Source: a virus
Lineage: Duplodnaviria > Caudoviricetes
Strand: one strand, 5' to 3'
IMG/VR virus record: IMGVR_UViG_3300030376_000674
Span: 1 to 53,522 of that record
Length of the DNA: 53,522 bases
Below the pieces are notes generated by a model. It did not search any database, had not been told where the DNA came from, and saw only the letters and a list, made by a program, of their open reading frames with translations. The position numbers and the translations under genes are program-made. Below are positions 1-47,200 of this stretch, in pieces. How positions within the stretch are numbered: the first letter of the stretch is position 1; each line of letters starts with the position of its first letter.

Positions 1-101
1 TCAAATATAGTTTTACTATATGGACAAACAGATACCCTGGGGACGGTATGTAAAATGGAAGACATGTATTTTTTTTGGAATATATTTTTAACTTTAGTAG
101 T
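1..101. repeat. Terminal direct repeat, left copy (circular-assembly overlap)
   Basis: 1-101 equals 53422-53522 except one base (A99 vs G53520). Confidence 0.95.
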
Positions 102-294
102 AGCTCCTATTATTTTTGGTATTCGTAAGAACGAAACAGAAGCAAAAAGAATAGATATATTACTAAATAAAACTAGAGAAGAAATAGCAAAAGATTATGT
201 TACTAAACAAGAAGTCAAAGAGGATATGACTATATTAATGGAGAGAGTAGAGAAGCTACATGAAAAGGTAGATAAGTTATTCGAGGTGAAATAA
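55..294 (+). CDS. Small membrane-anchored coiled-coil protein
   Basis: N-terminal hydrophobic helix then charged heptads; starts right after the stop of the 51642..53474 gene on the circle; stop overlaps next start. Confidence 0.8.
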   Translation: MEDMYFFWNIFLTLVVAPIIFGIRKNETEAKRIDILLNKTREEIAKDYVTKQEVKEDMTILMERVEKLHEKVDKLFEVK

Positions 295-4681: not shown

Positions 4682-6633
4682 TGGGATTATATGATGACGG
4701 TGGTGTTCAATTTGCTCAAGAAACATTTGATAATGCTAGAGCAAGAGGAATAGAACAAGCCAAAAAAGCTGACGAAGAAGGCTATAAGAAAACATTACTT
4801 AGAAGGTTTCTTATAGAGCCTGCTATTGGTGGTATCTTCGGTGAGGTTAGAAAATCTTTTGAAGAAAGAGGACAAACTTTACAGGATAAGAATGTTCCTA
4901 TGAGAACTTATCTTGAAAGTTATTTATCAAATCAAGAACAAACAAGAAATGGATTAGTAAATTCAGAGGACAATCCTAATGGTTTTATTGTTAATGGTGT
5001 AGTTGACCTAAACTTATTACAGAACTATATAGCTAATGACTTAACAGATAGACTAGGTAATCAACAACAATTTCAAAACTTAAATATAACTGAATTAGAT
5101 GGCTATATCCAAGAACAATCTAAATCAGAAGCTATAAGATTAAAAGACTATTATCAAAATTTATACAATGAAAGTATGGATGTTCCTGATATGGAGACAA
5201 TATTATCTCAGTTTGATAAATGGAATAGTAGAGAAAATCCAAAGAATCCTTTTGGAAAAATATTTCAAGGTGTTAAAAGATTAATTGGAATGGAGACACC
5301 AGAGACAATAGACTATAAAAACTTAGAAGCCCATGAAAATCTACGTATTACTTTAGGTGATGCAACAAGTAAAGAGCTTATAGAGTTAGGTAATGCTGTA
5401 AGTGAATACGATAAAGCAGCTACTAGTTCAGGAAGTAGATATGACATTGATGGTTTAATTAGAACAGTTCAAAGTAAAATAGAATCTGGAGAAATATCAG
5501 GCAGAATTATTGAAAATTCTGCTAAGATTAATGACGTTTCAATTACAAGTGGAGGTGTTACTTATAATCAAAAAAGCTATGATTACTTAGAAATAGGCCC
5601 AGATGGTAGACCAATCCTAAGAACTGAAGTTGGTGGGAATCCTGTAATAACTGAAGTGAAAGGTGTAGAACCTCCAACACAGGCACAAATAGATTTAGGT
5701 AAAGAGGCAATGATGGCTGTGTTAGAAGATAGTAATAACAAGTATGACTCTAATTTATATTCAAATGTTATTCAAGGTAAAGGTCAAAAGGTTGGCGACC
5801 CTAGAAGATTAGAAGAGTATTATGGTACAAAAGTAGCTTATGCAGCCAATGCTATGCAGCTTAAAGCAGACCAATATGGTGTTAAAATAGACCCAGGACA
5901 ACTGTATTCTATGGCAGCTTTATATATTTTAAATAATGTTAATGCTGGTTATATAGCTGAAAAAGAGGGCGATAGCTCGTTAATAAGTTTACAAAAATAT
6001 CCTCCTACAAATCCTGACCTCTATGATTTATTTGGTTTTGCAGGTCAAACTACTTTAGATGGAGAAGGTAACTTAATGGTTATTAATAATCTTCCAGCAA
6101 TAGTTAAAGATGTATTAGATACTTCTTTAACTCCTGATGCAGGAACAGTAAGATTAAGAGAAATAAATGCAGATTTACAAAAATTAATTACTGACTCTAC
6201 TAGAGATGATGCAGGAGGCTATTTAACTTTAGATGCTTTACCAGAGTATATTTTAGAATATGATGGAAAAACAGCAGAAGAAAAAATACTTAGATATGAA
6301 TTAGATATGATTTCAGGAATTAATAACATTATGCCTGAAGAAGCAAGAATTATGAATCCTGAGTACAATAAAGTTGCCGAAGGTAGTACATATTTTTCAG
6401 ACCAAGAACAAAGAAAAGCAGAAGAAAAAGAAGAGTTCTTAAGTCAATTTAATGTTGATGAGCAAAATAGACCAGCAAGGTCAAAAGACTATTTTACTAA
6501 AGCAGATGCTCAAGCAGATTTAGAAAGAATGGAACTTGAAGGTGAGTACGAAATTAAGAAAAGAACAGGGCCAACGTACAGAAATAAAAACAGATATTAC
6601 ATTGCAAGAAAAGTAAGATTTATTAATGACTAG
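4681..6633 (+). CDS. Putative internal virion protein
   Basis: 650-aa ORF, GAGGAG RBS, between other large virion-module ORFs. Confidence 0.6.
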   Translation: MGLYDDGGVQFAQETFDNARARGIEQAKKADEEGYKKTLLRRFLIEPAIGGIFGEVRKSFEERGQTLQDKNVPMRTYLESYLSNQEQTRNGLVNSEDNPNGFIVNGVVDLNLLQNYIANDLTDRLGNQQQFQNLNITELDGYIQEQSKSEAIRLKDYYQNLYNESMDVPDMETILSQFDKWNSRENPKNPFGKIFQGVKRLIGMETPETIDYKNLEAHENLRITLGDATSKELIELGNAVSEYDKAATSSGSRYDIDGLIRTVQSKIESGEISGRIIENSAKINDVSITSGGVTYNQKSYDYLEIGPDGRPILRTEVGGNPVITEVKGVEPPTQAQIDLGKEAMMAVLEDSNNKYDSNLYSNVIQGKGQKVGDPRRLEEYYGTKVAYAANAMQLKADQYGVKIDPGQLYSMAALYILNNVNAGYIAEKEGDSSLISLQKYPPTNPDLYDLFGFAGQTTLDGEGNLMVINNLPAIVKDVLDTSLTPDAGTVRLREINADLQKLITDSTRDDAGGYLTLDALPEYILEYDGKTAEEKILRYELDMISGINNIMPEEARIMNPEYNKVAEGSTYFSDQEQRKAEEKEEFLSQFNVDEQNRPARSKDYFTKADAQADLERMELEGEYEIKKRTGPTYRNKNRYYIARKVRFIND

Positions 6634-9600
6634 TTTTAATCCAAATTACATACCTTTACAGGCTAAAAGGGTTCAAAATCTTACACCTGTTGCTAGGTAT
6701 GACTTAAATGATTTAGAAGCCAATCAAGAGTTTCAACGTGTCTCTGAAAGATTTTTAGGTTCTATTGGAGAAGATGACGACATCTTTGAATATCTAAGAG
6801 ACTCTGACTTTAATCTTACCTCAGCTATGTCTAGATATGCTGACTCTAATAAATTTACAGAGCAACAGAAAAAAGATTATGCATATCTTAGAACAATGTT
6901 TGATGGTGCAGATGTAGGTAGCACAGGACAATGGATTGAATTAATTAAAGATGGGACAGTAGATATGGTTACTGACCCTACATTAATTTTAGCTGCATTG
7001 TTTACTCCGTTTACTGGAGGAGGCACATTAGCTGCTAGAGCTACGTTAGGAAAAGGGGTAGCTCAAGGTTTAAAAATATTAGGCCAAGCTAATAAAGGAA
7101 ATCTAACTAAAGCACAACTTGCAAAATCTATAGCTGATGGCACATTAGACCAAGCTGCAAAAAGTGCTGTTAAAGTATCTACAGCAGCAGGAGCTATAGA
7201 AGCTGGTGGCTGGATGGGATTACATAACTATGCTAATCAAAACATAGAAATCAACACAGGTTTAAGAAGAGCTTTTTCAGCTAAAGAGTTAGTAGGTACT
7301 ACGGCTGCTGGTGCAGTCCTTGGTGGGGTTATTGGCTACGGTGGACAGAAATGGTCTAACTATTCAAATCCAGTTTTACAAATTAATAACAAACCTAAAG
7401 TTTTTAAAAACGATACATTTGGAAATCTTAGATTAAGATGGAATAAACTTTGGGACGGTAGAATAACAAATTTATTTACAGGTAATGCTGCTAGATTTAA
7501 AAGATGGGAAGACCAAGGTGTAGAACTTGCTAGAACTTGGAGAGGTTTATTAGACCATGATTCTCAATTAGGTATAGGTAAAAGAAGTAATAAAGCTATA
7601 GAGTGGAGTTTTCCTGAACAGCTAAATGCTAGAAGAGGAAACTACATGTTCTTAGAAGAAGGCCCACAAAGAGGTTTTTGGGCTAGGATTGCACCTATAG
7701 CTCCTGATGGTGTATTAGATGAAGTAGAAGGTAGAGCTATAGTAAGATTTTTACGAGGCGACAAGAGTGCTATAAAGGGTAAAAGTAAAGAAGTAAAACA
7801 AGTCGCAAATGATTTAAGAGAATGGTATGACATGATTGCTAAAGATGCAATGGATGCAGGCTATGGCGATATTAGAATAGAAAATTATTTTCCAAGAGAA
7901 TGGAACAGGCAAGCTATAAAAGATAATCAGCCTGAGTTTATAGAAAAGTTAGCAAAAGATTTAAACATATCTAAACGAGAAGCTGGTGACATTGTTGAAG
8001 GCATGTTAGATATTAATAATGATTTATATGCTAGTCATGCTAATTTACTTACACACGGTAGAAAATTTAAAGGACTTGATGATAATAACTATGAAGAGTT
8101 TTTAAATAATGATTTGATTCCTGTTAGTGCTACTTATGGTTTAAATGCTGCAAATTCAATTCAAACTAAAATATCTTTTGGTATGCCTAAAAAATCTAAA
8201 GTTGGTAAGGCAATAGATTTAGAAGGTAATGAAATATTAACTTTCCAACAATTAAGAAGGTCAAAGTTAGATGAGTTTGAAGAAAGATGGATTAATCCTG
8301 TAGCTGAAGAATTGTTTGAAAAAACTGGCAGGAGAATGACTGCTAAAGAAAAACAAGAGATGCGAGAAACTTTTGAGTCTGTAACAGGTGCAGTTAGATA
8401 TTATGGTAATCAACATATTCAAGGTGTATACGATGGTATTAAGCTTGCTAATGCTATGGCTTATCTGCCTTTAGCTACTGTCTCTTCTTTCTCAGAAGGT
8501 TTGATAGCAGCTTCTAGAACATCAGGCAGTAAATCTGTTAAGAACTTTCAGTATCAAATGGAAAATGGTTTACAGTTTTTAACAACTGATTTAAAAAGTT
8601 TATTAAAAGAAAGAAGAGGCTTATCAGAAATTGTAGCTAATAGAGAAGCTAACAGAGTTTACCTAGCTGTAGATGACGTGCAAGCAGATTTAACAAATAG
8701 ATTAGCTGGTGATGGGTTACAGTCTCCAGGATTACAACGAGTAGCAAGAACATTTTATAAAGCAAATTTATTATTACCTTGGACAAAAACTATTGAGCTT
8801 GCAGCTTTCAACACAGGTAGAGATATAGTTGAAGAATCTCTAGTTCAACTTAGTAAGCTTCAAGATGCTGGAGTAAAAATATTTGATGATGTAGATACGT
8901 TTGTAAAATCAGCTTCAGGTAAAGATAAAGCTATTATTAAAGAACTAGATAGTATAGATGGAGTCTGGGCTGGTAAAGGTAATCTTTATAAAAGAGTTAC
9001 TTATTTAAAAGAACAAGTATTTGACATGGGGATTGATGTCGGAGAGGGATTGAACTGGTTAAATTCTGGAGCAAGTAGACAATCTGATTTTTGGTTAAAA
9101 AATATGTCTATGGCTGGTGGTAGATTTGCTAGAAGTGTAATACTACCTACATCTAGAGAGTTTTCTAAAGTTCCTAGATTTATGACAAATCCTAAGTGGG
9201 ATATATTTACACAGTTTTTAAGATACCCTACAGCATTTAGTAATACTGTATTAAAAAACTTTGTTAGAGATACTTTAAATAATCCAGCAATGTCAGGCCC
9301 AAGGTTTGCAGCTTTTATAGCAGGAGCAACAGCTATTGCTAGAGGAACTAATTACTGGAGAAGTAGTGAAGACCAACAAGGAAGATACGATAGGTTTGCA
9401 AGAAAGACTACAGATAAAATGAGTGATAAAATTTTTGATGCTTTTGTAGCTAGAAGTGCAGAAGAAAATCTTAGAGCTTTTCAAAGAGTAGGTTTATTAG
9501 GCCCATTAGAATATGTTGTAAGATTTGGAGATGCTTATAGAGTTAATCCAAATCCATTAGTAGCTTTATCTAGTTTAGGTGGCCCTGTTATGGGAGACAT

Positions 9601-10375
9601 CACAGGTACTACAATATATAACAGGGGGATTTTTGAGATTATAGCAAGAAAAACTCCTTTGATAGGTATTAGAAATCCTTTGAAAAAATACACAGGACTT
9701 GACCCTTATGCACCTATTATAGAAGGAGCTAGGGAGTTAGATACTACTACTAGAGATGCTTTACAAGAAGGTTTTGATTCAGTTTTACCAAGAAGAAATT
9801 ATAAAAAAGGTGGCATAGTTAGAGATGGTTTTCAAAACCTAGGACGTATGCGATATAACCAAGGAACTGAAGTAGAGGTCAACAAGTATGTAGTAGAGGG
9901 AAAAACTTTTGACAAAGAAACTCAAATAAGATTTAACAACATAGATAATGATTTAAAAAAATTAGGATATAGTAGGGTTGCTAGAGCAGCTATTTTAGGA
10001 AATATTCATGTAGAAACAGGTGGTACTTTTGACCATCAACAAAGACAAAATAACGGTAATGGTTACGGTCTTTATCAATTTGATTTCCAAAAAAAATTCT
10101 ATATGGAAAATTCAGATAGTTATTTAAAAGCAAATAAGTTTGAAGATACTCCTTTTAATCAAACTATGTTTATGCATGAAAGTATAAACCAGTTAGCACC
10201 AGGAAAACATACTGTAAATAAAGATATGATAGGTCAGTTGCAAAGAGATTTACAAGGTGATGATGTGTCAACAGCAGCAGTTTCATTTTCTAAAAATTAT
10301 TTACAGCCTGGTAAACCACATATAGAAAGAAGAATAGATGCATCTAAAACTATTTACGAGATATTAGGGGATTAA
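6626..10375 (+). CDS. Large internal virion protein with C-terminal phage tail lysozyme-like domain
   Basis: 1249 aa; Ala/Gly hydrophobic segments; C-terminal AAILGNIHVETGG...GNGYGLYQF motif of the Phage_lysozyme2 type. Confidence 0.75.
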   Translation: MTSFNPNYIPLQAKRVQNLTPVARYDLNDLEANQEFQRVSERFLGSIGEDDDIFEYLRDSDFNLTSAMSRYADSNKFTEQQKKDYAYLRTMFDGADVGSTGQWIELIKDGTVDMVTDPTLILAALFTPFTGGGTLAARATLGKGVAQGLKILGQANKGNLTKAQLAKSIADGTLDQAAKSAVKVSTAAGAIEAGGWMGLHNYANQNIEINTGLRRAFSAKELVGTTAAGAVLGGVIGYGGQKWSNYSNPVLQINNKPKVFKNDTFGNLRLRWNKLWDGRITNLFTGNAARFKRWEDQGVELARTWRGLLDHDSQLGIGKRSNKAIEWSFPEQLNARRGNYMFLEEGPQRGFWARIAPIAPDGVLDEVEGRAIVRFLRGDKSAIKGKSKEVKQVANDLREWYDMIAKDAMDAGYGDIRIENYFPREWNRQAIKDNQPEFIEKLAKDLNISKREAGDIVEGMLDINNDLYASHANLLTHGRKFKGLDDNNYEEFLNNDLIPVSATYGLNAANSIQTKISFGMPKKSKVGKAIDLEGNEILTFQQLRRSKLDEFEERWINPVAEELFEKTGRRMTAKEKQEMRETFESVTGAVRYYGNQHIQGVYDGIKLANAMAYLPLATVSSFSEGLIAASRTSGSKSVKNFQYQMENGLQFLTTDLKSLLKERRGLSEIVANREANRVYLAVDDVQADLTNRLAGDGLQSPGLQRVARTFYKANLLLPWTKTIELAAFNTGRDIVEESLVQLSKLQDAGVKIFDDVDTFVKSASGKDKAIIKELDSIDGVWAGKGNLYKRVTYLKEQVFDMGIDVGEGLNWLNSGASRQSDFWLKNMSMAGGRFARSVILPTSREFSKVPRFMTNPKWDIFTQFLRYPTAFSNTVLKNFVRDTLNNPAMSGPRFAAFIAGATAIARGTNYWRSSEDQQGRYDRFARKTTDKMSDKIFDAFVARSAEENLRAFQRVGLLGPLEYVVRFGDAYRVNPNPLVALSSLGGPVMGDITGTTIYNRGIFEIIARKTPLIGIRNPLKKYTGLDPYAPIIEGARELDTTTRDALQEGFDSVLPRRNYKKGGIVRDGFQNLGRMRYNQGTEVEVNKYVVEGKTFDKETQIRFNNIDNDLKKLGYSRVARAAILGNIHVETGGTFDHQQRQNNGNGYGLYQFDFQKKFYMENSDSYLKANKFEDTPFNQTMFMHESINQLAPGKHTVNKDMIGQLQRDLQGDDVSTAAVSFSKNYLQPGKPHIERRIDASKTIYEILGD

Positions 10376-10376
10376 T

Positions 10377-10820
10377 ATGGGATTTCCGTTTGAGATAATT
10401 ACAATGCTTGCATCTACAGTTCTAGGTGGACTGATGAGTGTGTGGGCTGAAAGTAGAAAAGCTAAAGCAGAGCAACAAAAGCTACTAATTACACGTGGTG
10501 AGTTTGAAATGAAAGCTAGAAAGCAAGCTATTGATGCTGGTCTAGCTGATAAAGGGTTTGCTTGGACAAGAAGAATTATAGCTTTGACTTCAGTATTTGC
10601 TATTGTACTTTTACCAAAGTTAGTTGCTGTATATTATCCAGATGTATCAGTAACTGTTGGTTATACAAATTGGAATCCAGGCTTTTGGTTCTTGAAAGAA
10701 GGTAGAGAAGTTTTTGAATGGATAACTTTTCAGGGCTTAGTAATTACACAGCTTGATACAAACTTAGTGTCAGCTATTATCGGTATGTACTTTGGAGGTA
10801 GCCTGGTAAAAGGAAAATAA
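10377..10820 (+). CDS. Membrane protein, holin-like (3TM type)
   Basis: Three hydrophobic segments, WTRR before TM2 and C-terminal IIGMYFGGS resembling GTA-type 3TM holins; follows the lysozyme-domain gene. Confidence 0.5.
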   Translation: MGFPFEIITMLASTVLGGLMSVWAESRKAKAEQQKLLITRGEFEMKARKQAIDAGLADKGFAWTRRIIALTSVFAIVLLPKLVAVYYPDVSVTVGYTNWNPGFWFLKEGREVFEWITFQGLVITQLDTNLVSAIIGMYFGGSLVKGK

Positions 10821-11107
10821 TGAACAGTAATCAATGGATGGATATACTAGAAACTGTAGGCATACCTGCTGCTTTTGCAGTAGCTGCTGGATGGATGGTA
10901 TACAAACTATTTAATGCTTTGATTGCTGACATACATAAAAAACTAGATACTCAACATGGAATGATAGTTGCATTGATAGATAGAGTAAGACAAATAGATA
11001 ACGATATAATAAGAATAGACACAATGTGTCGTACAGCTATGGGAGTACCTGTAGATGTAGATAGACTAGCGAGGGCAGATGGGAAGAAAGACCAAAGAAA
11101 AGATTGA
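10820..11107 (+). CDS. Small membrane protein with coiled-coil tail
   Basis: N-terminal TM (VGIPAAFAVAAGWMVY); coupled to neighbours. Confidence 0.7.
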   Translation: MNSNQWMDILETVGIPAAFAVAAGWMVYKLFNALIADIHKKLDTQHGMIVALIDRVRQIDNDIIRIDTMCRTAMGVPVDVDRLARADGKKDQRKD

Positions 11108-11555
11108 ATTAGGAACTTTAATAGGAATATTTATAATTTCAGTATTAGGTGTGAGTAATGCACATGCTGATGAAATGGTACATAAGTTTAAGAACCCATC
11201 ATTTAGTGGTATAGGTACGTCTGCACATTACCTTACCATAGAGAATCAAGAGTTCACTAGAAAGATGACTATAAAAGAAGAACTCAAAGCCTTGCAAGAA
11301 CAAATAGAAAGAGATAAAGAGAACACAACACTTGCTAGATTTATTAGAAACTTAGAATCTAGAATATATGCACAATTATCCAGACAATTAGTAGAGAATT
11401 TGTTTGGAGAAAATCCCAGCACAAGTGGAATACTAACCTTAGAGGGTAATACTATAGAATATAGTATAGAAGATGGAATAATAACATTAACTATAACAGC
11501 AAGCGATGGAACACAAACAGTTATTCAGTTGCCTATTGGTGATTTTTCTTTCTAG
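11079..11555 (+). CDS. csgF: Curli assembly component CsgF-like
   Basis: Signal peptide ending AHA, then MVHKFKNPSFSG (cf. CsgF FxNPxFGG), F..NLESRIYAQLSRQL and a C-terminal beta-rich part; directly upstream of csgG. Confidence 0.85.
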   Translation: MGRKTKEKIELGTLIGIFIISVLGVSNAHADEMVHKFKNPSFSGIGTSAHYLTIENQEFTRKMTIKEELKALQEQIERDKENTTLARFIRNLESRIYAQLSRQLVENLFGENPSTSGILTLEGNTIEYSIEDGIITLTITASDGTQTVIQLPIGDFSF

Positions 11556-12315
11556 TGGATGTGCAGTATTAAGTGAGAATAACGATTTAGTTCTAACGAA
11601 AAAGATACAGCCCTCAACTATATTAGAAATACAATCAGATGAGCTATTTGACATGCCTGGTGCTAAACAGCAGCCAGTTGTCGCAGTATATCCTAACAGT
11701 TTTAAAGATTTAACAGGCCAAAGAAGAAGTAATAGTTCTTTTGCCTTATTTAGTACAGCCATAACACAAGCTCCAGAAGCAATACTGATAAGAGCTTTGA
11801 AGCATACAGCAGATGGCAAGTTCTTCAAAGTAGTAGAACGTGTGGGACTTGATGACCTCACAAAAGAAAGACAACTAATTAGGACAACTCGTAAAGAGTT
11901 TGAACAAGATGCAAAATTACAGCCTTTGCTTTTTGCAGGGCTTATGTTCCAGGGTGGAGTAATTAGCTATGAAGCTAATATTCAATCTGGAGGATTGGGA
12001 GCTAGGTATCTAGGTATAGGTAATAGCAAACAATATCGAGAAGATACTGTAATCATTTCACTACGATTGGTTTCAGTATCTACAGGTGAGGTGTTGATAG
12101 AGACATCAGTTTCTAAAAGCATTTTATCTACAAGTGTTTCTCAGGATGTATTCCGTTTTATTGAAGCTGGCACAGAGTTAGTAGAAATAGAAGGAGGAGT
12201 TGCTGAGAACGAATCTATCGCTATTGCTTTGACGAAAGCAGTAGAGACAGGTGTACTAAATATAATAAAAATAGGAATAGAGAGAGGCTATTGGGAATAT
12301 GAAGAATCTAATTAG
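11506..12315 (+). CDS. csgG: Curli secretion channel lipoprotein CsgG-like
   Basis: Lipobox LSSGC; VAVY..FKDLTGQRR, FSTAITQ, F.VVERVGLDDLTKERQLIR, GLGARYLGIG.SKQYR.D. Confidence 0.92.
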   Translation: MEHKQLFSCLLVIFLSSGCAVLSENNDLVLTKKIQPSTILEIQSDELFDMPGAKQQPVVAVYPNSFKDLTGQRRSNSSFALFSTAITQAPEAILIRALKHTADGKFFKVVERVGLDDLTKERQLIRTTRKEFEQDAKLQPLLFAGLMFQGGVISYEANIQSGGLGARYLGIGNSKQYREDTVIISLRLVSVSTGEVLIETSVSKSILSTSVSQDVFRFIEAGTELVEIEGGVAENESIAIALTKAVETGVLNIIKIGIERGYWEYEESN

Positions 12316-13009
12316 TATATTAGTTATGTTATCGTTAAGTGTAATGGCAGATGATAATGAGATATATATTGACCAATCAGGAGCTACAGCTAATATTGAT
12401 TTAGAGCAGTTAGGAGATGATGGAAACATTATCGGAGGGTTAGAGTCATCAGCAGGAAATTTAACACCGTTGGATTTAGATGGAGATAATCTTACATTAG
12501 ACATAAATCAAATAGGTGGTTCTAATACTTTTCTAGGAGATATTTGGGCTGATAACTTTACAGGCTATTTTAATTTTGATGGAAGCAGTAATGATTTCAC
12601 AATTCAAGTAGACCCAAGCAACACTTATGGTGCAGACGGCTCAGATGTCAACATTGACGTTTCAGGAAGTAGTAATGATTTTACATTAGACCTGGCTACA
12701 ACAGCTATGGCTAGTAATACAGACCTTGACTGGATTGTAAATGGAGATGGAAACGTATTTGATTTCGACATTAATTATGATGGAGCTACAAACTATGTAG
12801 ATGTTGATGGTGATTCAAACACAGTAAACTTTGAGGGGAGTGGCTATGCTGGTGGGTATTTTTACCTAGACCAAACAGGCGACTCACGGACTTTTGACAT
12901 CCAACAATTAAGCACATTAAATAATGATTGGCTCAAGATTATATCCAATGGTTCTAATGGTACTTTGTGTATTATCCAAGACGATAATGGCACAGCCGTT
13001 GGATGCTAG
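12299..13009 (+). CDS. Secreted curlin-like beta-repeat protein
   Basis: Sec signal; N.IYIDQSG, IDLEQLG..N, LDINQIGGSN and about 23-aa xDGxSNxFxI repeats; D/N/G-rich; follows csgG. Confidence 0.7.
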   Translation: MKNLISILVMLSLSVMADDNEIYIDQSGATANIDLEQLGDDGNIIGGLESSAGNLTPLDLDGDNLTLDINQIGGSNTFLGDIWADNFTGYFNFDGSSNDFTIQVDPSNTYGADGSDVNIDVSGSSNDFTLDLATTAMASNTDLDWIVNGDGNVFDFDINYDGATNYVDVDGDSNTVNFEGSGYAGGYFYLDQTGDSRTFDIQQLSTLNNDWLKIISNGSNGTLCIIQDDNGTAVGC

Positions 13010-14033
13010 TATTGGTAACATAACAGAACTTAACGGTGCAGGCAGGGTTATAAGAGATAAACCTTATAATGCTGCCTTATCGTTTAACATAGAAAGTTTT
13101 GACAATGTTCAAACTTCAGAAGGTCGTATAGGAATTACATTTCTAGACGATAGTCAGGTCAGATTGACAGAGCATTCTGAACTTATCATAGATGAGTTTA
13201 TCTACGACCCTGACCCATCTAAATCTAAGATGGCTTTACAGTTTGCAAGTGGTACTGCAAGATTTATTACAGGCAAACTTGCAACAATAAATAAAGAAAA
13301 TATTTTTATAGAGACCCCAAGTGCGACCATTGGTATTCGTGGTACAGACTTTACGATTACCATAGATGAGCTTGGCAGGTCTCTTATTATTTTATTGCCT
13401 GACGAAAATGGTTTACCAAGTGGAGAGATAGTAGTAGCTACAGCTATGGGTGAGGTTGTTTTAAATCAGCCGTATCAAGCTACATCAGTATCTACATTTG
13501 AAAGTGAGCCTGCAAAGCCTGTAGTGTTGGACATAACTACAGAGCTAATAGATAACATGTTAATAGTTAGTCCACCAAAAGAGGAGTATAGTCTTGCTGA
13601 GGAAAGTGTGTCAGATAGTAATAGTAATATACTTGATGTTGACTATCTTGAGTTTGAAGACTTGGATGTAGATTTACTAAAAGATGACAGCTTAGAATTT
13701 ACAGAGCTAGATATAAATTATTTAGATGTAAATTTTTTAGAAGACTTACTAGATATAATAGAAGAAGTAAACGAGCTAGATGAGACAGAAAGTATATTAA
13801 GAACAGATATAAATTTAAAAGGAACACAGGTTGGTTTTGACCCTAATACACAGATAAATACTTTTATTACAGACCAACAAATATCTTTCTTTAGAAGTAT
13901 AGAACAAACAGTAAGAATAGATTTAGATAAAGCAGGAGCTTATACCGTTATACTAATACAAGATGGTAAGAGTACACAGCTAATAGTAAATGGTGGTGGC
14001 GATTCTGTTATAAAAATTACACAGAGTAACTAA
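12924..14033 (+). CDS. FecR-domain periplasmic protein (start probably 12948)
   Basis: Signal-like N-terminus; D.VQT..GRIGITFLDDSQVRLTEHSEL and IETPSATIGIRGTDF are FecR-domain motifs; acidic C-half. Confidence 0.85.
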   Translation: MIGSRLYPMVLMVLCVLSKTIMAQPLDASIGNITELNGAGRVIRDKPYNAALSFNIESFDNVQTSEGRIGITFLDDSQVRLTEHSELIIDEFIYDPDPSKSKMALQFASGTARFITGKLATINKENIFIETPSATIGIRGTDFTITIDELGRSLIILLPDENGLPSGEIVVATAMGEVVLNQPYQATSVSTFESEPAKPVVLDITTELIDNMLIVSPPKEEYSLAEESVSDSNSNILDVDYLEFEDLDVDLLKDDSLEFTELDINYLDVNFLEDLLDIIEEVNELDETESILRTDINLKGTQVGFDPNTQINTFITDQQISFFRSIEQTVRIDLDKAGAYTVILIQDGKSTQLIVNGGGDSVIKITQSN

Positions 14034-15763
14034 TGAGATGGGCTAGTTTATTATTAGGATTATTGGCTTTGCCTTTGTTATTTAATGTAGCTCCGTTAGA
14101 AACATTAAGACTTAAAACATTTGACAGGCTAGTAGATACACCTGACCCTACAGGGTATTTTACAATACTTAATATAACTGAAGAGTTTATTGATAGTCAA
14201 GGTGGTTATCCACTACCTAGAGAAACACTAGCAGATATACACATAAAGCTTTTACAAGAAGGAGCAATAGGTGTCGGATGGACTATGTTATTTCCCCATC
14301 CAGATAGACTAGGAGGAGATGAAAAGTTTGCTGAAGTCTTATCATTTTCTCCTAGTATACTTGCAATGCCTGAAGTACCTAATGGCATATATCCTAAAAC
14401 ACATGGTACAGTCATCCGAGGGCCAGAGGTAAATCTACCAAAAGCCCAAGGATTTTTACAGAACATAGACATACTTAAAAATAATTCTAGTCAAGGAGCT
14501 GTCTCTGCTCCTGTAGATGTAGATAATCTTGTCAGACAAATACCTTTGATACAGCAAACACCTAGTGGATGGGTCGCATCTTTTGGGACTGAGGTATTAA
14601 AAGTATTAGGTGGTGGTAATACATATCAGATTATTACTAATGAGAATGGTATAGAGATGGTAAGAGTAAGAGGACTAGACCCTATACCTACTGACAGTTA
14701 TGGACGTAAGTGGATTAGTTGGGTTGATACACCACAGACTACACTAGATAATTTAGATGTAGCAGGTAAGTTTGTCTTCGTAGGTTTTACAGCTAAAGGT
14801 ATAACCAGTCAGCTAGCAACTCCTGTTGGATTGCTTGAGCCTCACAAAATCCAGGCAGCTCTTGCCGAGTCAATATTATTAGATACACCACAGATACCAG
14901 ACTACAGATTATTTGTAGAGCTACTACTATTATGTGTCTCTGGTCTTCTTATAGCTCTTGTAATACGTTCTTTTGGTATGACCCTATCAATGGTATTAGC
15001 TGGTGGCTTGTTTGCTTCAGTAGGTTATCTTGGATATTACTTTGTATCTCTTGGATATTTAATTGACGTTACATGGAGTATGACATGTATGACACTTATA
15101 TCTTTACAACAATTTTATTTAAGGTTTAGACAACAATATAGATTACGACAGCAGATAAAGAAACAGTTTGAACATTACCTTGACCCCAGACAAGTAGCTA
15201 GGCTACAAAAAAATCCAGGGCTTTTGAAACTAGGTGGTGAAAGAAAAAGATGTACGATTATGTTTACAGATGTCAGAGGCTTTACAAGTCTATCAGAAAA
15301 GCTAGAGCCTGAAGAAGTTATAAAGATTATGAACAAAGCTTTGACTGTCCAAGCTGATGCCGTCCAAAGAAATGGAGGGATGGTAGATAAATATATAGGT
15401 GATGCGATGATGGCTGTATGGAATGCTCCACTAGATGTAGACAATCAAGAACAGCTTGCTATTGAAACAGCTCTTCAAATACAACACGACATGCAAGAAG
15501 CAGAGTTAGAAGTTGAAATTGGTATAGGAATAAATACAGGCATAGTTTGTGTAGGGAATATGGGGTCGGCTTCCAGGTTTGAATATAGTTGTTTAGGTGA
15601 TGCTGTAAATTTAGCTGCTCGTTTGGAGTCTTCATGTAAGTCTGTTGGTAAAAATTTAGTCATAGGTGAGGAGACAATTAAGAATTATCAGGGTGAATAT
15701 ACAGAATTAGACCCTATTTTTGTAAAAGGTAAGGAAAAAGAGGTAAAAATCTACACAATATAG
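14033..15763 (+). CDS. CHASE2-domain membrane adenylate cyclase (class III)
   Basis: N-terminal TM, CHASE2-like periplasmic region (GGYPLPR, D.DNLVRQIPL), 3 TMs, then FTDVRGFT, DKYIGDAMMA, GIGINTG, GDAVNLAARLE. Confidence 0.92.
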   Translation: MRWASLLLGLLALPLLFNVAPLETLRLKTFDRLVDTPDPTGYFTILNITEEFIDSQGGYPLPRETLADIHIKLLQEGAIGVGWTMLFPHPDRLGGDEKFAEVLSFSPSILAMPEVPNGIYPKTHGTVIRGPEVNLPKAQGFLQNIDILKNNSSQGAVSAPVDVDNLVRQIPLIQQTPSGWVASFGTEVLKVLGGGNTYQIITNENGIEMVRVRGLDPIPTDSYGRKWISWVDTPQTTLDNLDVAGKFVFVGFTAKGITSQLATPVGLLEPHKIQAALAESILLDTPQIPDYRLFVELLLLCVSGLLIALVIRSFGMTLSMVLAGGLFASVGYLGYYFVSLGYLIDVTWSMTCMTLISLQQFYLRFRQQYRLRQQIKKQFEHYLDPRQVARLQKNPGLLKLGGERKRCTIMFTDVRGFTSLSEKLEPEEVIKIMNKALTVQADAVQRNGGMVDKYIGDAMMAVWNAPLDVDNQEQLAIETALQIQHDMQEAELEVEIGIGINTGIVCVGNMGSASRFEYSCLGDAVNLAARLESSCKSVGKNLVIGEETIKNYQGEYTELDPIFVKGKEKEVKIYTI

Positions 15764-15885
15764 TGTAAATGCTCTCTCGCTTACGGAGAGGCTCTCTAAC
15801 GAATTTTATGTCTTTTGATACCTAGAGCATTACTTACATGCTTTCCGTTCAATACAGAGCATTCTGTGAGGTCGATTTTCTCACA
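15764..15885. other. Structured intergenic region where the two arms converge
   Basis: TGTAA-ATGCTCT (15764-75) can pair with AGAGCAT..TTACA (15824-38); hairpins CTCTC/GAGAG and TGTGAG/CTCACA. Confidence 0.45.
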
Positions 15886-16105
15886 AAGCCTGAATTTCAC
15901 GTTGCAAGTACACATGTAATGGTTCAAGCTTCGCTTTTGCTCTTTGAAGTAAAACTCTGATGATTTGTCTATCCATTTCTGAAAATACTACATCAACTTT
16001 ATCAACTGGAAACTCAGATATTTCTGAGACTATCTTCCCCTCTGGTGTTAGTAGCACCGAAAAACTTATTAAGTTACCATCACTCTTTTGTTTTTTCCTC
16101 TTCAT
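15881..16105 (-). CDS. Hypothetical protein
   Basis: 74 aa, AAGGA RBS, last gene of the minus arm. Confidence 0.7.
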   Translation of the reverse strand: MKRKKQKSDGNLISFSVLLTPEGKIVSEISEFPVDKVDVVFSEMDRQIIRVLLQRAKAKLEPLHVYLQREIQAL

Positions 16106-16523
16106 TTCTATTCCTTAATTCTGTAGTGCTAAATCTATGTCCCCTCTTGTTATAATATATTTCTATTCCTCTTTCTTTACATAGGCCTTTACCTGTGAAT
16201 ATTGCATTTCTATATTCTTCTCCTATGATTCTTACATCAATAGGGAAAGTATATAAAATATCTTCCAACTCATGCTCTCTATGATAAACCACAATATCGT
16301 CCACCCATCTGATACCTTTTAATTGTATCTGCCTTTCTACAATACTTTGTAAAGGTTTGTTTTTTTCTGGTCTATCTGTTGAGGGGTCAGTCTGTAATGC
16401 TACTATTAGATAGTCACATACCGTCTTGGCCTCCTCTAACATAGTGACATGACCTGCATGTAATAAATCAAATGCACCACAGGTAATGCCTACTTTAGAT
16501 TTAAGTCCTAGAAAACTTCTCAT
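16080..16523 (-). CDS. Cytidylyltransferase (TagD / glycerol-3-phosphate CT-like)
   Basis: TCGAFDLLHAGH (HxGH), ER..QL..IRWVD, C-terminal R...FSTTELR. Confidence 0.85.
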   Translation of the reverse strand: MRSFLGLKSKVGITCGAFDLLHAGHVTMLEEAKTVCDYLIVALQTDPSTDRPEKNKPLQSIVERQIQLKGIRWVDDIVVYHREHELEDILYTFPIDVRIIGEEYRNAIFTGKGLCKERGIEIYYNKRGHRFSTTELRNRNEEEKTKE

Positions 16524-17497
16524 TATTCTGACAAGTCTGCAAAGGTAATATTTTTATGACTACCTCTCAGTCCTGCTTTCATATACGTAGTAGCTCTACC
16601 TTCAAAGAAGTTCTGGTGTTCTACTCCCATGACTTCATCTAACCAAGGTAAAGGATTCTCACTTTGTTTATAGTTTGGTTTTAAACCAAGTTGTAATAAT
16701 CTTCTATCAGCTATGTATCTGTTGTACTTATACATATCGTCTTTAGTTAAGCCTTGAATATCTCCCATATCAAATACTAAATCTAAAAATTTATCTTCAA
16801 GCTTTACCATCTCTCTACATATTTGATAGATTTCTTTTTTAAATTCATCAGTCCATATCTCTAAGTTTTCTTGTATGAACTCTCTAAATAATTTAGTCAT
16901 AGCTTCTACATGTAATGATTCATCACGAATAGAATATGTAACTATCTGACCCATGCCTTTCATTTTTCCAAATCTAGGAAAGTTTAATAAGATTGCAAAG
17001 CTACTAAATAATTGTAGTCCTTCTGTAAAAGCAGAGTAAACTGCTAGGGTTTTAGCTATAGTCTTTCTATCAGACTTCAATGGTTTAAAATTACCTACGT
17101 AGTCATGCTTATCTGACATCTCTTCATACTCAGCAAATGCTTTGTATTCTATCTCAGGCATTCCTACTGTATCTAATAATAAACTATAAGCATCTTGGTG
17201 TATTGATTCCATATTAGCAAAAGATGACATCATCATTCTTGCTTCTGGTTTCTTAAACATAGGCATGTATTTGTCTATATACCCAGCACCTACATCTACA
17301 TCTGATTGTGTAAACAATCTAAAGATTTGTGTAAGTAAATACTTTTCGTTCTCTGATACATCTTGCCAGTCTTTTACATCATTATGTAAAGGGACTGACT
17401 CAGGCATCCAATGCATTTGATTCTGTAATTTATAGTAATCATACATCCATGGATATTCAAACGGTTTGTAATAATCTCTATCAGCTAATAGTGCCAT
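16523..17497 (-). CDS. nrdB: Ribonucleotide reductase class I beta subunit
   Basis: HW.PE.V, FTQSDVDV, ESIHQDAY (radical Tyr present), EGLQLFSSF, IRDESLH, NFFE.RAT.Y. Confidence 0.95.
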   Translation of the reverse strand: MALLADRDYYKPFEYPWMYDYYKLQNQMHWMPESVPLHNDVKDWQDVSENEKYLLTQIFRLFTQSDVDVGAGYIDKYMPMFKKPEARMMMSSFANMESIHQDAYSLLLDTVGMPEIEYKAFAEYEEMSDKHDYVGNFKPLKSDRKTIAKTLAVYSAFTEGLQLFSSFAILLNFPRFGKMKGMGQIVTYSIRDESLHVEAMTKLFREFIQENLEIWTDEFKKEIYQICREMVKLEDKFLDLVFDMGDIQGLTKDDMYKYNRYIADRRLLQLGLKPNYKQSENPLPWLDEVMGVEHQNFFEGRATTYMKAGLRGSHKNITFADLSE

Positions 17498-44219: not shown

Positions 44220-47200
44220 ATGGCAGGATATACACGACAAAGTACGTTTTCAGATGGCGATACCATCACAGCAGCAATATTCAATAATGAATATAATGCT
44301 ATAGCGAATGCTTTTCATAACCAAACAGGTCACAAACATGACGGCACAGCAGCCGAAGGGCCAGTTATAGGTGTTATTGGAGATGCAGGGGTAGTTACAC
44401 CTCTTAACAAAGTATTAATAGATACAACTAATGACCACATTGAGTTTTGGATAGATGATTCAAGCAGTTCAGTACAGCAAGTATATATAGGCAATGGAGT
44501 TATTGCTCCTGTCACAGATAGCGACATTGACCTAGGTACAAATGCTTTACGATTCAAAGATGCTTATATAGATACTATTACTACAACAAGTAATGTTTCC
44601 GTAGGTGGAAACCTGACTGTCACAGGTACTACAACACTTAACGGAGGAACATTAACACTAGGAGATGCAGCATCAGATAACGTTGTTTTTGGTGCAGATG
44701 TAGACTCAAGCATTATTCCAGATGATGACGATACGTATGACTTAGGTTCAACAACCCAAGAGTGGAGAAATTTATTTATAGACGGTACTGCTAATATTGA
44801 TAGCTTAGTATTAGGTAGTGGTGTAACTGTTACAAGTATTCTTGATGAAGATGGATTAACTTCTGATAGTGCTAGTGCTTTAGCAACTCAACAATCTATT
44901 AAAGCTTATGTTGATGCTCAGGTAACAGCACAAGACTTAGACTTCCAAGGTGATTCAGGTGGAGCATTATCTATTGACTTAGATAGTGAAACTCTTGATA
45001 TAGCTGGTGGTACAGGTATTGATACAGCAGGTTCTGGTAATACATTAACAGTTGCTATTGATTCTACTGTAGCAACTTTAACAGGTTCACAAACTTTAAC
45101 AAACAAAACAATAGATGTAGATAACAATACGTTATCTAATATAGAAGTAGACAATTTTAAGTCTGGAGTTTTAGATACAGATATATCTTCCGTAGCAGGA
45201 ACAGACACAACACTTGCTTCAGCTAAAGCTATTAAGACTTATGTTGATGCTCAAGTAACAGCTCAAGATTTAGATGCTACTACTGATAGTGGTACAGTTG
45301 CAATAGACCTAGATAGTGAAACATTAACTATTGCAGGTGGAGAAGGTATAGATACTTCAGGTTCTGGTAATACAATTACAATTACAGGTGAACTAGCTAC
45401 AGAAACAAATGCTGGTGTTGCTACTTTTGATGGTACTGACTTTACAGTTTCTTCAGGCGATGTAACTCTAAATGCAGAAAGAATACAAGATATTACTGGG
45501 GCAATGTTCTCAGGAAATACTGAGACAGGTATTGCAATTACTTATGATGATAGTGACGGAACAATAGATGCAGTAGTTAGCTTATCGCCATTTGATACAG
45601 ATAACTTATCAGAAGGCTCAAGTAATTTATATTATACAAATGCTAGAGTAAGAAGTCATATTACAGGTTCTGACCTGGATATGGGTGGTAATAAAGTATT
45701 ATTTGGTAATCTTTATTCTAATGAATCTGATTTACCAAGTGCATCAACATATCATGGTATGTTTGCACACGTTCATGCGACAGGTAAAGGTTACTTTGCA
45801 CACGGTGGTCAATGGCATAAATTATTAGATGAGTCATCTTCTGATACTGGTGATTTAACAGAAGGAAGTAATTTATATTTTACAAATGCTAGAGCAGATG
45901 CTAGAGCAGATGCAAGGATAGCAGCATCTTCAACAGATGACCTATCAGAAGGTTCAAGCAATTTATATCATACAGTAGAAAGAGTACAAGATGTAGTTGG
46001 TGGTATGGTTTCTTCTAATACTGAAAATGGTATTAGTGTAACCTATGACGATAGTGATGGTACTTTAGACTTTGATGTTAATGACCCTACTATTACTTTA
46101 GCAGGAGATGTGACTGGTTCAGCAACAATGACTAACCTAGGTAATGTTTCTATTACTACAACAGTTGCAGCAAACTCAGTTGCTTTAGGTACAGATACAA
46201 CAGGAGATTATGTTGATAGTTTAGTAGCAGGAACTGGTGTTACTTTAACTAATAACTCAGGCGAAAGTGCTACACCTACAGTAGCTATTGGACAAGCAGT
46301 AGAAACAAATTCAAGTGTAACTTTTGGTTCAGTTACAACTACAGGTAATACTACCGTAGGAGGAAATTTAGTTGTAAATGGAACTACGACCACACTTAAT
46401 ACTGCCACTTTAGATGTTGAAGATAATAATATAACACTTAACAAAGGTTCAGGCGATACATCAGGTTCAGCAGATGGTGCAGGTATTACAATTCAAGATG
46501 CTGTTAATTCTTCTACAGATGCAACTATAGCCTGGAGTGCAGCTAATGATAATTTTGTGTTCTCACATGAAGTAGTTGCTCCAAGTTTAGATATATCAGG
46601 TAATGTAGATATTGATGGCACATTAGAAACAGATGCATTAACTATTAATGGTACAGCTTCAGTTCCTTTTGAATCTGCTGACCATAGTAAATTAGATGGT
46701 ATAGAAGCAAATGCAACAGCAGACCAAACTGCTTCTGAGATTAGAGCATTAGTTGAAGCAGCAACAGACTCAAATGTATTCACAGATGCTGACCACACTA
46801 AACTTAATAATATTGAAGCCAATGCTACAGGAGACCAAACTGCTAGTGAAATAAAAGCTTTATATGAAGGTAATTCAGATACAAATGCATTTACTGATGC
46901 AGATGAAAGTAAGTTAGATGGTATAGAAGCAAATGCTACAGCAGACCAAACAGATGAAGAAATACAAGATATAGTAGGTGGAATGCTTACTGGTAATACT
47001 GAAACAGGTATTACTGTTACATATCAAGATAGTGATGGAACAATAGATTTTGTTGTAGCATCTCAGACAGATGAAAACTTTACAACAGCAGACCATGCTA
47101 AATTAGATGGTATAGAAGCTGGAGCTACTGGCGACCAAACAGCAGCAGAAATTAGAGCATTAGTAGAATCTGCTAGTGATTCTAATGTATTTACTGATGC

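Follow-up and report, generated by a model that had tools for sequence, protein, structure and literature searches.

The window analysed here is a virus record of 53,522 bases from IMG/VR (IMGVR_UViG_3300030376_000674; CheckV completeness 100), and its + strand contains a block of five genes that encode, in this order, homologues of the curli secretion proteins CsgF and CsgG, a curlin-like secreted protein, a secreted FecR-domain protein and a receptor-type adenylate cyclase with a CHASE2 domain. Such a gene set has already been published as the viral curli (type VIII secretion)-FecR-adenylate cyclase block. The explanation that we favour, and consider probable, is that the window carries a copy of this published cassette at the end of its late operon, and that two bacterial modules have been combined in the cassette. 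That its parts have been correctly identified and are intact is, judging from their sequences, nearly certain. As to how they work, our best guess, and a tentative one, would be that the export set is coupled to a CHASE2 cyclase that is modulated by the FecR-domain protein. The preliminary description of this DNA proposed that the five genes form a relay from the cell surface to cyclic AMP (cAMP) rather than a biofilm curli system, and we regard such a relay as plausible.

The genes for terminase, portal, capsid, tail proteins, tail fibre and internal virion protein are all located on the + strand upstream of the cassette. The genes for DNA polymerase, primase-helicase and ribonucleotide reductase are located on the - strand, and these replication genes converge on the + strand arm from position 16080. 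The + strand arm closes with seven overlapping open reading frames (ORFs): g147, g95 and then the five cassette ORFs (Table 1). When the longest ORFs are taken, neighbouring cassette ORFs overlap by 50, 17, 86 and 1 nt. Thus, the earlier report of five overlapping, co-oriented genes at 11079..15763 was exact to the base, and the cassette does end the late arm, as had been proposed. The GC content of the cassette (0.345-0.375) does not contrast with that of the rest of the window. Scans for transcription signals were uninformative: 30 promoter-like sites were found versus 40.5 +/- 5.8 in shuffled sequences, and 4 terminator-like sites versus 5.0 +/- 2.2.

The gene identities given in the preliminary description also stood, those of CsgF, CsgG, FecR and the CHASE2 cyclase by Pfam matches above the cut-offs, and that of the curlin-like protein by a structure model together with structural and profile matches. 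In the case of CsgF, the match to Pfam PF10614 (E 7.7e-19) covers 127 of the 132 profile positions and scores 68.6 bits against a cut-off of 25.8; the protein also matches phrog_35372 (E 1.2e-42), and its N-terminal hydrophobic segment (residues 9-27) fits a signal peptide. No solved CsgF chain was matched by phmmer. CsgG matches Pfam PF03783 (E 8.2e-48, above the curated cut-off) and the structures of Escherichia coli CsgG (3x2r, 4uv3 and 6l7a, at 3e-43). Its LSSGC sequence aligns with the E. coli lipobox LLSGC, cysteine on cysteine, and its constriction loop is set apart from that of E. coli by a one-residue gap and a sequence difference (...ALFSTA in the phage, ...SNFSTA in E. coli). The preliminary description recognised no csgE, csgC or csgD, in agreement with our scan of the genome, in which PF10627, PF10610 and PF00196 gave 0 matches each at E<=1. 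According to the portion of PMC9599517 that was available to us, on which all statements about this paper are based, alphaproteobacterial curli systems likewise lack CsgE, CsgC and CsgD.

The third protein has no Pfam family at E<=0.01, and the NCBIfam CsgB/CsgA models match it at 9e-5 and 3e-3, far under their cut-offs. It has a signal-peptide-like N-terminus and contains 39 Asp/Glu versus 3 Lys/Arg residues, and the alignment of 33 viral homologues reveals repeated Q-x-G-x-x-N-type turns and two invariant C-terminal cysteines. Its AlphaFold2 (AF2) model is an all-beta solenoid with a predicted local distance difference test score (pLDDT) of 84.5. In a comparison with 48,161 chains, the model had its best structural match in Pontibacter CsgA (8c50_A; Z 17.3, 20% identity over 204 aligned residues), with a root-mean-square deviation of 9.1 and a lead of only about 1 Z over unrelated beta-helices (Z 15-16). 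Foldseek returned nothing at E<=1e-3 for the model (294 rows). A profile-profile comparison (hhalign) with alphaproteobacterial Curlin_rpt proteins gave a probability of 94.5% and an E of 7e-8 over the N-terminal 78 columns only. Because the model is a beta-solenoid, its best match is CsgA and the profile matches alphaproteobacterial curlins, we accept the third ORF as putatively curlin-like; that its product forms fibres is a prediction only. The earlier statement that this is not a curli system was too strong, since the third protein resembles a genuine curlin.

The fourth protein matches Pfam FecR (E 3.4e-10, above the curated cut-off) and phrog_37870 (E 2.8e-78), and starts with a signal-peptide-like hydrophobic segment (residues 6-24). 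It consists of the FecR fold, an acidic stretch rich in leucine and aspartate, and a small beta-rich C-terminal part that closes the protein; the motif LEFxELDxNxLDxNF is invariant in 33 aligned homologues. The full-length AF2 model has a mean pLDDT of 54.6, with the FecR domain alone reaching 65-82 and the rest being unreliable. Structures matched by the model of the FecR domain are that of PupR, namely its periplasmic domain for cell-surface signalling (6ovk_R, E 2.6e-5), and that of the anti-sigma factor 4m0h/4m0n. According to the title of entry 6ovk, the PupR domain was solved in complex with its outer-membrane partner. Since the PupR domain works by contacting an outer-membrane partner, this match between models and structures is, in our view, the best single argument that the phage FecR protein may have a coupling role. 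It should be noted that the likeness to the Fec and Pup signalling systems (FecA-FecR-FecI; PupB-PupR) lies in the fold of the periplasmic FecR domain. The phage protein differs in having solely this domain, without the cytoplasmic anti-sigma N-domain. The genome scan found no STN domain above the cut-off (the best match, inside the tail-fibre ORF, scored 11.9 bits against a cut-off of 28.4) and no match to Sigma70_r2, the sigma-70 region 2 by which an extracytoplasmic function (ECF) sigma factor was sought.

The fifth protein matches the Pfam families CHASE2 (PF05226, E 1.1e-27, residues 12-305) and Guanylate_cyc (PF00211, E 5.8e-23, residues 405-575), both above their cut-offs, and its cyclase domain aligns with solved cyclases such as 6fht, 2w01 and 3r5g. 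Residues D413, K453, D457, N526 and R530 are invariant among the 76 viral family members; at the position of D523, 65 of these have D, 10 have S and 1 has A. We take the conserved residues to comprise the two metal-binding aspartates, the substrate-binding lysine/aspartate pair, and the asparagine and arginine that act in the transition state. In class III cyclases, the Lys/Asp pair specifies ATP. Judged by these residues the active site is complete, and cAMP synthesis is predicted.

With respect to novelty, the preliminary description knew of no account of the full five-gene set in a 53-kb podovirus, and in taking it as new it was mistaken. According to PMC9599517 (mSystems 2022), nine genomes of podovirus pelagiphages of the HTVC023P type contain CsgF, CsgG and CsgA/B, followed by FecR and then "frequently" by a second CsgA/B gene and an adenylate cyclase, and the same gene set occurs in pelagimyophages. 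The curli genes were detected at all 65 GOV2.0 ocean stations examined, their expression was seen in metatranscriptomes, and it was put forward that they came from Alphaproteobacteria and later passed from one virus family to another. An earlier partial description (PMC7029224) suggested "sibling capture" or an uptake pore, and Buchholz et al. (PMC9004378), describing phage Melnitz, suggested a pore for lysis timing. Moreover, PHROGs v4 holds families for four of the five cassette proteins. Our literature search found no paper in which CHASE2, curli and phage occur together, and CHASE2 has 0 mentions in the available portion of PMC9599517. The CHASE2 receptor framing is a fresh angle on a known object.

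The window and the region described in PMC9599517 share the order small upstream ORF, CsgF, CsgG, curlin-like, FecR and adenylate cyclase, as far as the available portion of that paper goes. In both, the genes form an accessory module of the phage late region that is widespread in ocean viromes and lacks CsgE, CsgC and CsgD. On the other hand, the published podoviruses are of the HTVC023P type, with a mean size of 58.8 kb and 42% GC, whereas the window has 53.5 kb and about 36% GC and does not contain a second curlin gene. The occurrence of csgF and csgG in T4-like marine phages, mentioned in the preliminary description, is borne out by the annotations of two cultured phages: Pelagibacter phage HTVC008M (KC465899, 7562-13807), which encodes CsgF, CsgG, a curlin-associated, a FecR-domain and a cyclase protein in the same order as the window, and Methylophilales phage Melnitz (MZ577097, 50731-56876), which has the same five-gene order. 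Their CsgG and cyclase proteins are 40-42% and 33-34% identical, respectively, to those of the window, and two g95 homologues are found just upstream of their cassettes. They differ from the window in being T4-like genomes of 141-147 kb in which the cassette lies between replication and baseplate genes, not at the end of the late arm, and in having an extra Curlin_rpt gene between FecR and the cyclase (locus L001, 6639-7964, in HTVC008M; locus L002, 6794-7810, in Melnitz), which is absent from the window. The extra curlin of HTVC008M also bears a PA14 domain, which is of a carbohydrate-binding or adhesion type.

The carrier belongs to another phage lineage. For portal, capsid and PolA, the nearest cultured relatives are the Pelagibacter phages HTVC115P, HTVC103P and HTVC104P (49-61% identity), followed for portal and capsid by HTVC033P and HMO-2011 at 43-54% (43-47% for HMO-2011 itself). 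HTVC023P, although present in the searched collection, is not among the 33 portal matches of the window, and of ten HTVC023P marker proteins the window shares only PolA (27%). On these protein comparisons, the carrier is best classified as an HTVC103P/HMO-2011-like podovirus and not as the published HTVC023P type; it is neither an HTVC023P-type podovirus nor a pelagimyophage, a distinction that concerns the carrier and not the cassette. The window is a further backbone carrying the cassette, and the new points are the carrier lineage and some of the anatomy. Our literature search, in whose scope the supplements of PMC9599517 were not included, found no paper mentioning HMO-2011 together with curli.

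The preliminary description suggested a synteny search, the results of which were as follows. When IMG/VR was scanned with the cyclase, at least 599 viral-contig stretches matched, 585 of them encoding a relative; from these we retained the best 80 loci. A second IMG/VR scan, anchored on g95, yielded 79 new loci. Among the best 80 cyclase loci, 36 have at least 5.2 kb upstream, and in 33 of these the genes for g95, CsgF, CsgG, curlin, FecR and cyclase are collinear. In the other three, the cyclase is inverted and adjoins the reductase gene. Altogether, the cyclase is inverted in six loci (L044-L047, L052 and L062), where it lies on the reductase strand and converges on FecR. The same arrangement was also seen in L189, L205 and L206. 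The cassette is tightly linked on at least three phage backbones. HTVC023P-like carriers are found among the loci (L075, L246 and L247), and five further loci are located on contigs of 82-168 kb, each with two g95 paralogues; four of these (L238, L244, L245 and L248) contain the full cassette, and L267 contains the cyclase only. The concern that the genes might not occur together elsewhere can therefore be set aside, given their wide co-occurrence in phages.

The relatives lacking all or part of the cassette are informative about its boundaries and its composition. In six loci without the cassette (L216, L217, L226, L232, L233 and L234), g95 is followed directly by the convergent gene for ribonucleotide reductase (RNR). 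Therefore, as judged from this gene order, the five genes on this backbone constitute an insertion or deletion (indel) positioned exactly between g95 and the replication arm. Locus L215 (1-4594), which has the same backbone, contains g95, CsgF, CsgG, curlin and FecR without a cyclase, and its convergent reductase gene follows 345 bases on; in L225, no cyclase is present in the 4 kb downstream. The FecR-fold gene, and not the cyclase gene, is the constant companion of the export genes. As a separate observation, one contig of the DNA sequencing run X1 joins position 13750 to 16563, skipping 2812 bases (depth 21.8, with 30 letters on the shorter side). This joint would take out the cyclase and transferase genes together with the end of FecR, and may derive from a cyclase-less relative in the same sample, but it is too weakly anchored and was not used.

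Against three close relatives, dN/dS (the ratio of nonsynonymous to synonymous substitution rates) is 0.05-0.13 for all five genes: 0.06-0.07 for CsgF (versus L071 and L039), 0.08-0.13 for CsgG, 0.07-0.11 for the curlin-like gene, 0.05-0.13 for FecR and 0.05-0.07 for the cyclase. The five genes are best regarded as real, intact and under selection. A search at the DNA level with the cassette in 50,697 phage records gave a sole match of 77 bases, in HTVC008M; its relatives are visible only as proteins. The stretch is contained in 14 sequencing runs at >=0.69 of the sampled words. Contigs of run X1, which may be the source sample, tile the region; one contig continues past the cyclase gene's 3' end into the convergent genes and has zero mismatch. 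Small metatranscriptome contigs from two studies match the CsgF, CsgG and curlin genes with 97-99% identity, where carry-over of DNA is possible. The metatranscriptome runs X19 and X20 contain no contigs on the FecR and cyclase genes, although such contigs can neither show absence nor rank genes.

The two halves of the cassette have different bacterial counterparts. On the one hand, we compared the 80 bacterial loci whose CHASE2 cyclases are closest to that of the phage (27-44% identity; according to their record titles, mostly from Alphaproteobacteria). None of the 80 has CsgF, CsgG, curlin or g95 within 10 kb of the cyclase. In 13 of them, the ORF directly upstream, on the same strand, encodes a FecR domain, and 18 others have such an ORF at another place in the locus; the remaining 49, of which 17 are short, have no FecR-domain ORF. 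On the other hand, 401 genomes were sampled evenly from one bacterial class, with a Bradyrhizobium genome as the centre; strong CsgG matches were obtained in 7, and in all 7 CsgF and CsgG are paired. FecR, cyclase and g95 are absent within 10 kb of CsgG in each of these 7 loci, and 4 of the 5 CsgF/G loci scanned have neighbours that match Pfam Curlin_rpt. Because bacterial CsgF/G pairs occur without FecR/CHASE2 and vice versa, the phage block, as far as gene neighbourhoods tell, unites two modules that the sampled bacteria keep apart: the CsgF/G export set and the FecR/CHASE2 pair. Alphaproteobacterial curli operons resemble the first half in that they contain the closest cellular CsgG relatives (38-46% identity), in that CsgF precedes CsgG and in having curlin neighbours. 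They differ in lacking FecR, cyclase and g95, and in that their subunits, unlike the phage subunit, meet Pfam Curlin_rpt; the search of these operons covered genes other than csgE.

The second half resembles bacterial pairs in which the gene of a CHASE2 membrane sensor is directly preceded by that of a secreted FecR-domain protein. The Burkholderia BiofilmReg operon, for example, encodes a LysM-FecR protein followed by a CHASE2 histidine kinase (PMC5192318). The bacterial FecR partners differ from the phage protein in having extra cadherin, Ig, LamG, RTX, TPR or LysM domains, and the output of the pair may be a kinase. The rhizobial FecR-domain proteins upstream of CHASE2 cyclases have 1288-2354 aa (Bradyrhizobium L084, L085 and L113; Rhizobium L108 and L127); those of Bradyrhizobium contain cadherin-like, Ig, LamG and RTX domains and those of Rhizobium TPR repeats (Pfam-scanned in L108). 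This suggests that CHASE2 sensors may have surface-adhesin-like partners in rhizobia. The preliminary description also invoked a relay in Sinorhizobium from an outer-membrane receptor to CHASE2 cyclases. The portions of PMC7529298 and PMC13001267 available to us agree with this, as the CHASE2 cyclases CyaK and CyaD1/D2 need the outer-membrane protein NsrA for signalling. In S. meliloti, too, an outer-membrane protein thus feeds cAMP synthesis by inner-membrane CHASE2 cyclases. However, NsrA is a beta-barrel receptor, unlike the lipoprotein channel CsgG, and the likeness drawn here is one of function.

For the coupled mechanism that we tentatively favour, the following sequence of events can be envisaged. 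The cassette genes would be transcribed together with the late structural genes, and the host Sec and Lol systems would put CsgG into the outer membrane, where CsgF would cap the channel. The acidic curlin-like solenoid would be exported and displayed on the cell surface, and the FecR-fold protein would act in the periplasm with the export set, as is suggested by its retention in variants that have lost the cyclase. In phages with a cyclase, the FecR-fold protein would modulate CHASE2, and cytoplasmic cAMP would report the state of the envelope or of export. In a more specific and distinctly unlikely version, the FecR-fold protein would be an invariant adaptor that replaces CsgE at the periplasmic mouth of CsgG, perhaps by a contact through its invariant acidic Leu/Asp-rich stretch, and that signals occupancy of the pore, export or contact at the surface to CHASE2 where a cyclase is present.

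Several points weigh against these views. The coupling of the two halves is deduced from their linkage, late co-transcription with the structural genes from overlap and orientation, and the host from the nearest cultured relatives. In the papers searched, we found no experiment on any copy of the cassette. The phage genome contains no cNMP (cyclic nucleotide)-binding domain, and the loci with an inverted cyclase, together with L215 and L225, show that the FecR-cyclase arrangement is not constant; the cyclase-less variants weaken the reading as a surface-to-cAMP relay. With regard to fibre formation, Pfam Curlin_rpt matches the curlin-like protein just at E 0.69, below the cut-off, the lead of CsgA over unrelated beta-helices is small, and the viral curlin profile has one match in the genome, leaving a single subunit without a separate nucleator (CsgB). 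In addition, Buchholz et al. saw no clumping in infections with Melnitz (PMC9004378).

The same evidence has to be weighed for the alternatives. It is possible, if rather unlikely, that the cassette makes functional curli fibres that render infected cells sticky, leading to "sibling capture", aggregation or exclusion of competitors, with FecR and the cyclase as regulators (PMC7029224; PMC9599517). CsgF, CsgG and the curlin-like subunit are indeed all present and conserved, the closest bacterial CsgF/G pairs adjoin Curlin_rpt proteins, the myovirus copies add a second curlin and a PA14 adhesion-type domain, and the module is widespread in ocean viromes according to the available portion of PMC9599517. 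However, besides the lack of clumping in Melnitz cultures and the single subunit gene without a nucleator, fibres would leave a regulatory FecR/cAMP pair in a late lytic operon without a known target, because neither a CsgD-type nor a cNMP-binding protein is encoded by the phage. We consider it unlikely that the cassette is, instead, a dedicated trans-envelope sensor that forms no fibre, in which CsgG/CsgF and the curlin-like protein would act as a surface receptor and FecR would carry the signal to CHASE2. The purpose would then be cAMP itself, for sensing of contact or superinfection, for rewiring of host regulation by the cAMP receptor protein (CRP), or for lysis timing. Such a sensor would fit the strict linkage and overlap of the genes, the absence of CsgE from the genome, the likeness of the FecR domain to a PupR signalling domain solved with its outer-membrane partner, the adjacency of FecR and CHASE2 in 13 of 80 bacterial loci and the Sinorhizobium precedent. 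It is at odds with the cyclase-less variants, which keep the other four genes, and therefore cAMP cannot be the sole purpose. It also fits poorly with the resemblance of the third protein to real curlins and the curlin neighbours of bacterial CsgF/G operons, with the phage having no cNMP receptor, with the inverted cyclase of six loci and with the absence of the classic Fec parts (anti-sigma N-domain, STN above cut-off and ECF sigma factor). Furthermore, the S. meliloti FecR-domain protein SMc02177, a target of the cAMP regulator Clr, is dispensable for signal perception (PMC5498481).

A third proposal, that ungated CsgG/CsgF acts as a pinholin- or secretin-like device for lysis timing or permeability, or as an import channel (PMC9004378; PMC7029224; PMC9599517), seems to us very improbable. 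CsgE is absent, the phage CsgG departs from E. coli CsgG in its constriction loop, and the cassette directly follows g147 and g95, two small membrane proteins of lysis-type appearance at the end of the late arm. Yet a pore across the outer membrane does not depolarise the inner membrane, and the conserved curlin-like, FecR and cyclase genes would be left unexplained; the end of an operon is also a common site for the insertion of accessory genes, and the cassette-less relatives show an indel there. Finally, a chimeric assembly, or captured host DNA without a role for the phage, would find its only support in the bacterial ancestry of the genes. The preliminary description had raised the concern of such a chimeric insert, and this explanation is effectively refuted, with next to no probability left to it: the arrangement is common to 33 of 36 independent IMG/VR loci and is found in cultured phages, the GC content is uniform, dN/dS is low throughout, and the X1 contig crosses the 3' end of the cyclase gene without a mismatch.

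With at least 599 matching viral-contig stretches, the cassette counts as one of the most widely distributed accessory modules in marine phages, and through it hosts such as SAR11 gain an envelope machine that they do not encode. There are three published guesses about its function, and the window leaves that question unchanged. What the window adds is a third podovirus or phage backbone, clean indel boundaries and the view of the cassette as a phage-made fusion of two bacterial modules. In addition, the finding that the FecR-fold gene is the constant companion of the export genes narrows which interaction matters first. If the FecR-fold protein were the adaptor described above, the phage would equip a host lacking both curli and this cyclase with a self-contained trans-envelope sensor. 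A ligand or partner would then be known for the first time for any CHASE2 domain, and a CsgG pore would for the first time be seen to serve in signalling.

Table 1. Features at the end of the late arm of the window.
Feature	Position (nt)	Residues	Strand	Description
g147	10377-10820		+	Small membrane protein, 5' of g95
g95	10820-11107	95 aa	+	Transmembrane helix and coiled coil; directly upstream of cassette
CsgF homologue	11079-11555	158 aa	+	Secreted cap/adaptor of curli pore; Pfam CsgF
CsgG homologue	11506-12315	269 aa	+	Outer-membrane lipoprotein channel; Pfam CsgG
Curlin-like secreted beta-solenoid subunit (putative)	12299-13009	236 aa	+	Structure model and profile-profile match
Secreted FecR-domain protein	12924-14033	369 aa	+	Pfam FecR
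FecR fold	13011-13478	~30-185	+	AF2 model
Invariant acidic Leu/Asp-rich stretch of FecR protein	13596-13793	~225-290	+	Alignment
CHASE2 class III adenylate cyclase, receptor-type	14033-15763	576 aa	+	Pfam CHASE2 and Guanylate_cyc
Cyclase transmembrane helix		4-22	+	Hydrophobic segment
Periplasmic CHASE2 domain	~14066-14947		+	Pfam
Cyclase transmembrane cluster	~14909-15112	from 293	+	Hydrophobic segments
Cytoplasmic cyclase domain	15245-15757		+	Pfam

Neither of the two ORFs that precede the cassette, g147 and g95, has a Pfam family. In the case of g95, this holds even at E<=10, bar a chance match to GST_C, and neither HisKA nor HATPase was found. The g95 protein has one hydrophobic segment (residues 9-27), a coiled coil and conserved ALIDRVR and RKD motifs, and it matches phrog_18771, a family of unknown function. 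A profile search yielded 712 representatives at E<=1e-3, with lengths of 56-209 aa among the 150 matches listed; the nearest Atlas clusters are 100% viral and their names read only "hypothetical protein". The automatic name "MotA/TolQ/ExbB" given to Atlas clusters of g95 has no support from Pfam. In the available portion of PMC9599517, an upstream ORF of the g95 type is labelled "histidine kinase". We reject this label for the g95 of the window, a protein of 95 aa with one transmembrane helix and no kinase domain at Pfam E<=10.

Among the 79 g95-anchored loci, g95 adjoins cassette genes in 56, including myovirus-size contigs with two g95 paralogues, and 17 loci have g95 but not the cassette, although their downstream sequence extends over at least 1.5 kb; the other 6 are too short to judge. 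The 17 loci without the cassette led us to reject g95 as an obligatory member of the cassette in podoviruses. The link between g95 and the cassette is real in myovirus-size contigs but not obligatory, and whether g95 should be counted as a member is uncertain. Homologues of g147 occur in 23 phage records without the cassette (21 pelagiphage and roseophage records at 54-63%), and some of these records are annotated "peptidase M15". Three hydrophobic stretches can be seen in g147 by eye, of which a scan with a 19-residue window flags one. It is a backbone gene and possibly encodes a holin, and together g147 and g95 look like lysis-type genes (holin-like, possibly spanin- or antiholin-like).

The junction between g95 and CsgF also stands out in the comparison with close relatives. 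Between the window and L039, the synonymous substitution rate (dS) is 0.50-0.95 in g147 and g95, and 0.09-0.18 in the cassette genes; this drop points to a putative recombination boundary at the edge of the cassette and, together with the cassette-less relatives, suggests that the cassette may move as a unit. Compared with L039, L004 and L071, the internal virion protein is 54-74% identical and the cassette and reductase genes 92-99%, which suggests that a recent recombination may have swapped the left structural arm relative to the cassette and the replication arm.

Some features outside the cassette were also noted. The 1249-aa protein encoded at 6626-10375 has a C-terminal Phage_lysozyme2 domain (6.6e-18) and matches large virion and endolysin PHROGs; it is probably an internal virion protein that is ejected and contains a cell-wall hydrolase. 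A 2000-aa ORF at 44220-50222 has many matches to collagen-like tail-fibre repeats and forms the GC-richest part of the genome (0.41-0.43 versus about 0.36), with a strong GC skew. The 610-aa protein encoded at 51642-53474 matches phrog_61 (2OG-Fe(II) oxygenase) and, more weakly, glucosyltransferase and endonuclease families. Beside the reductase genes, at 16080-16523, a 147-aa cytidylyl/adenylyltransferase-like protein (phrog_7878) is encoded that is present in only some of the relatives (L004, L028, L029 and L071).

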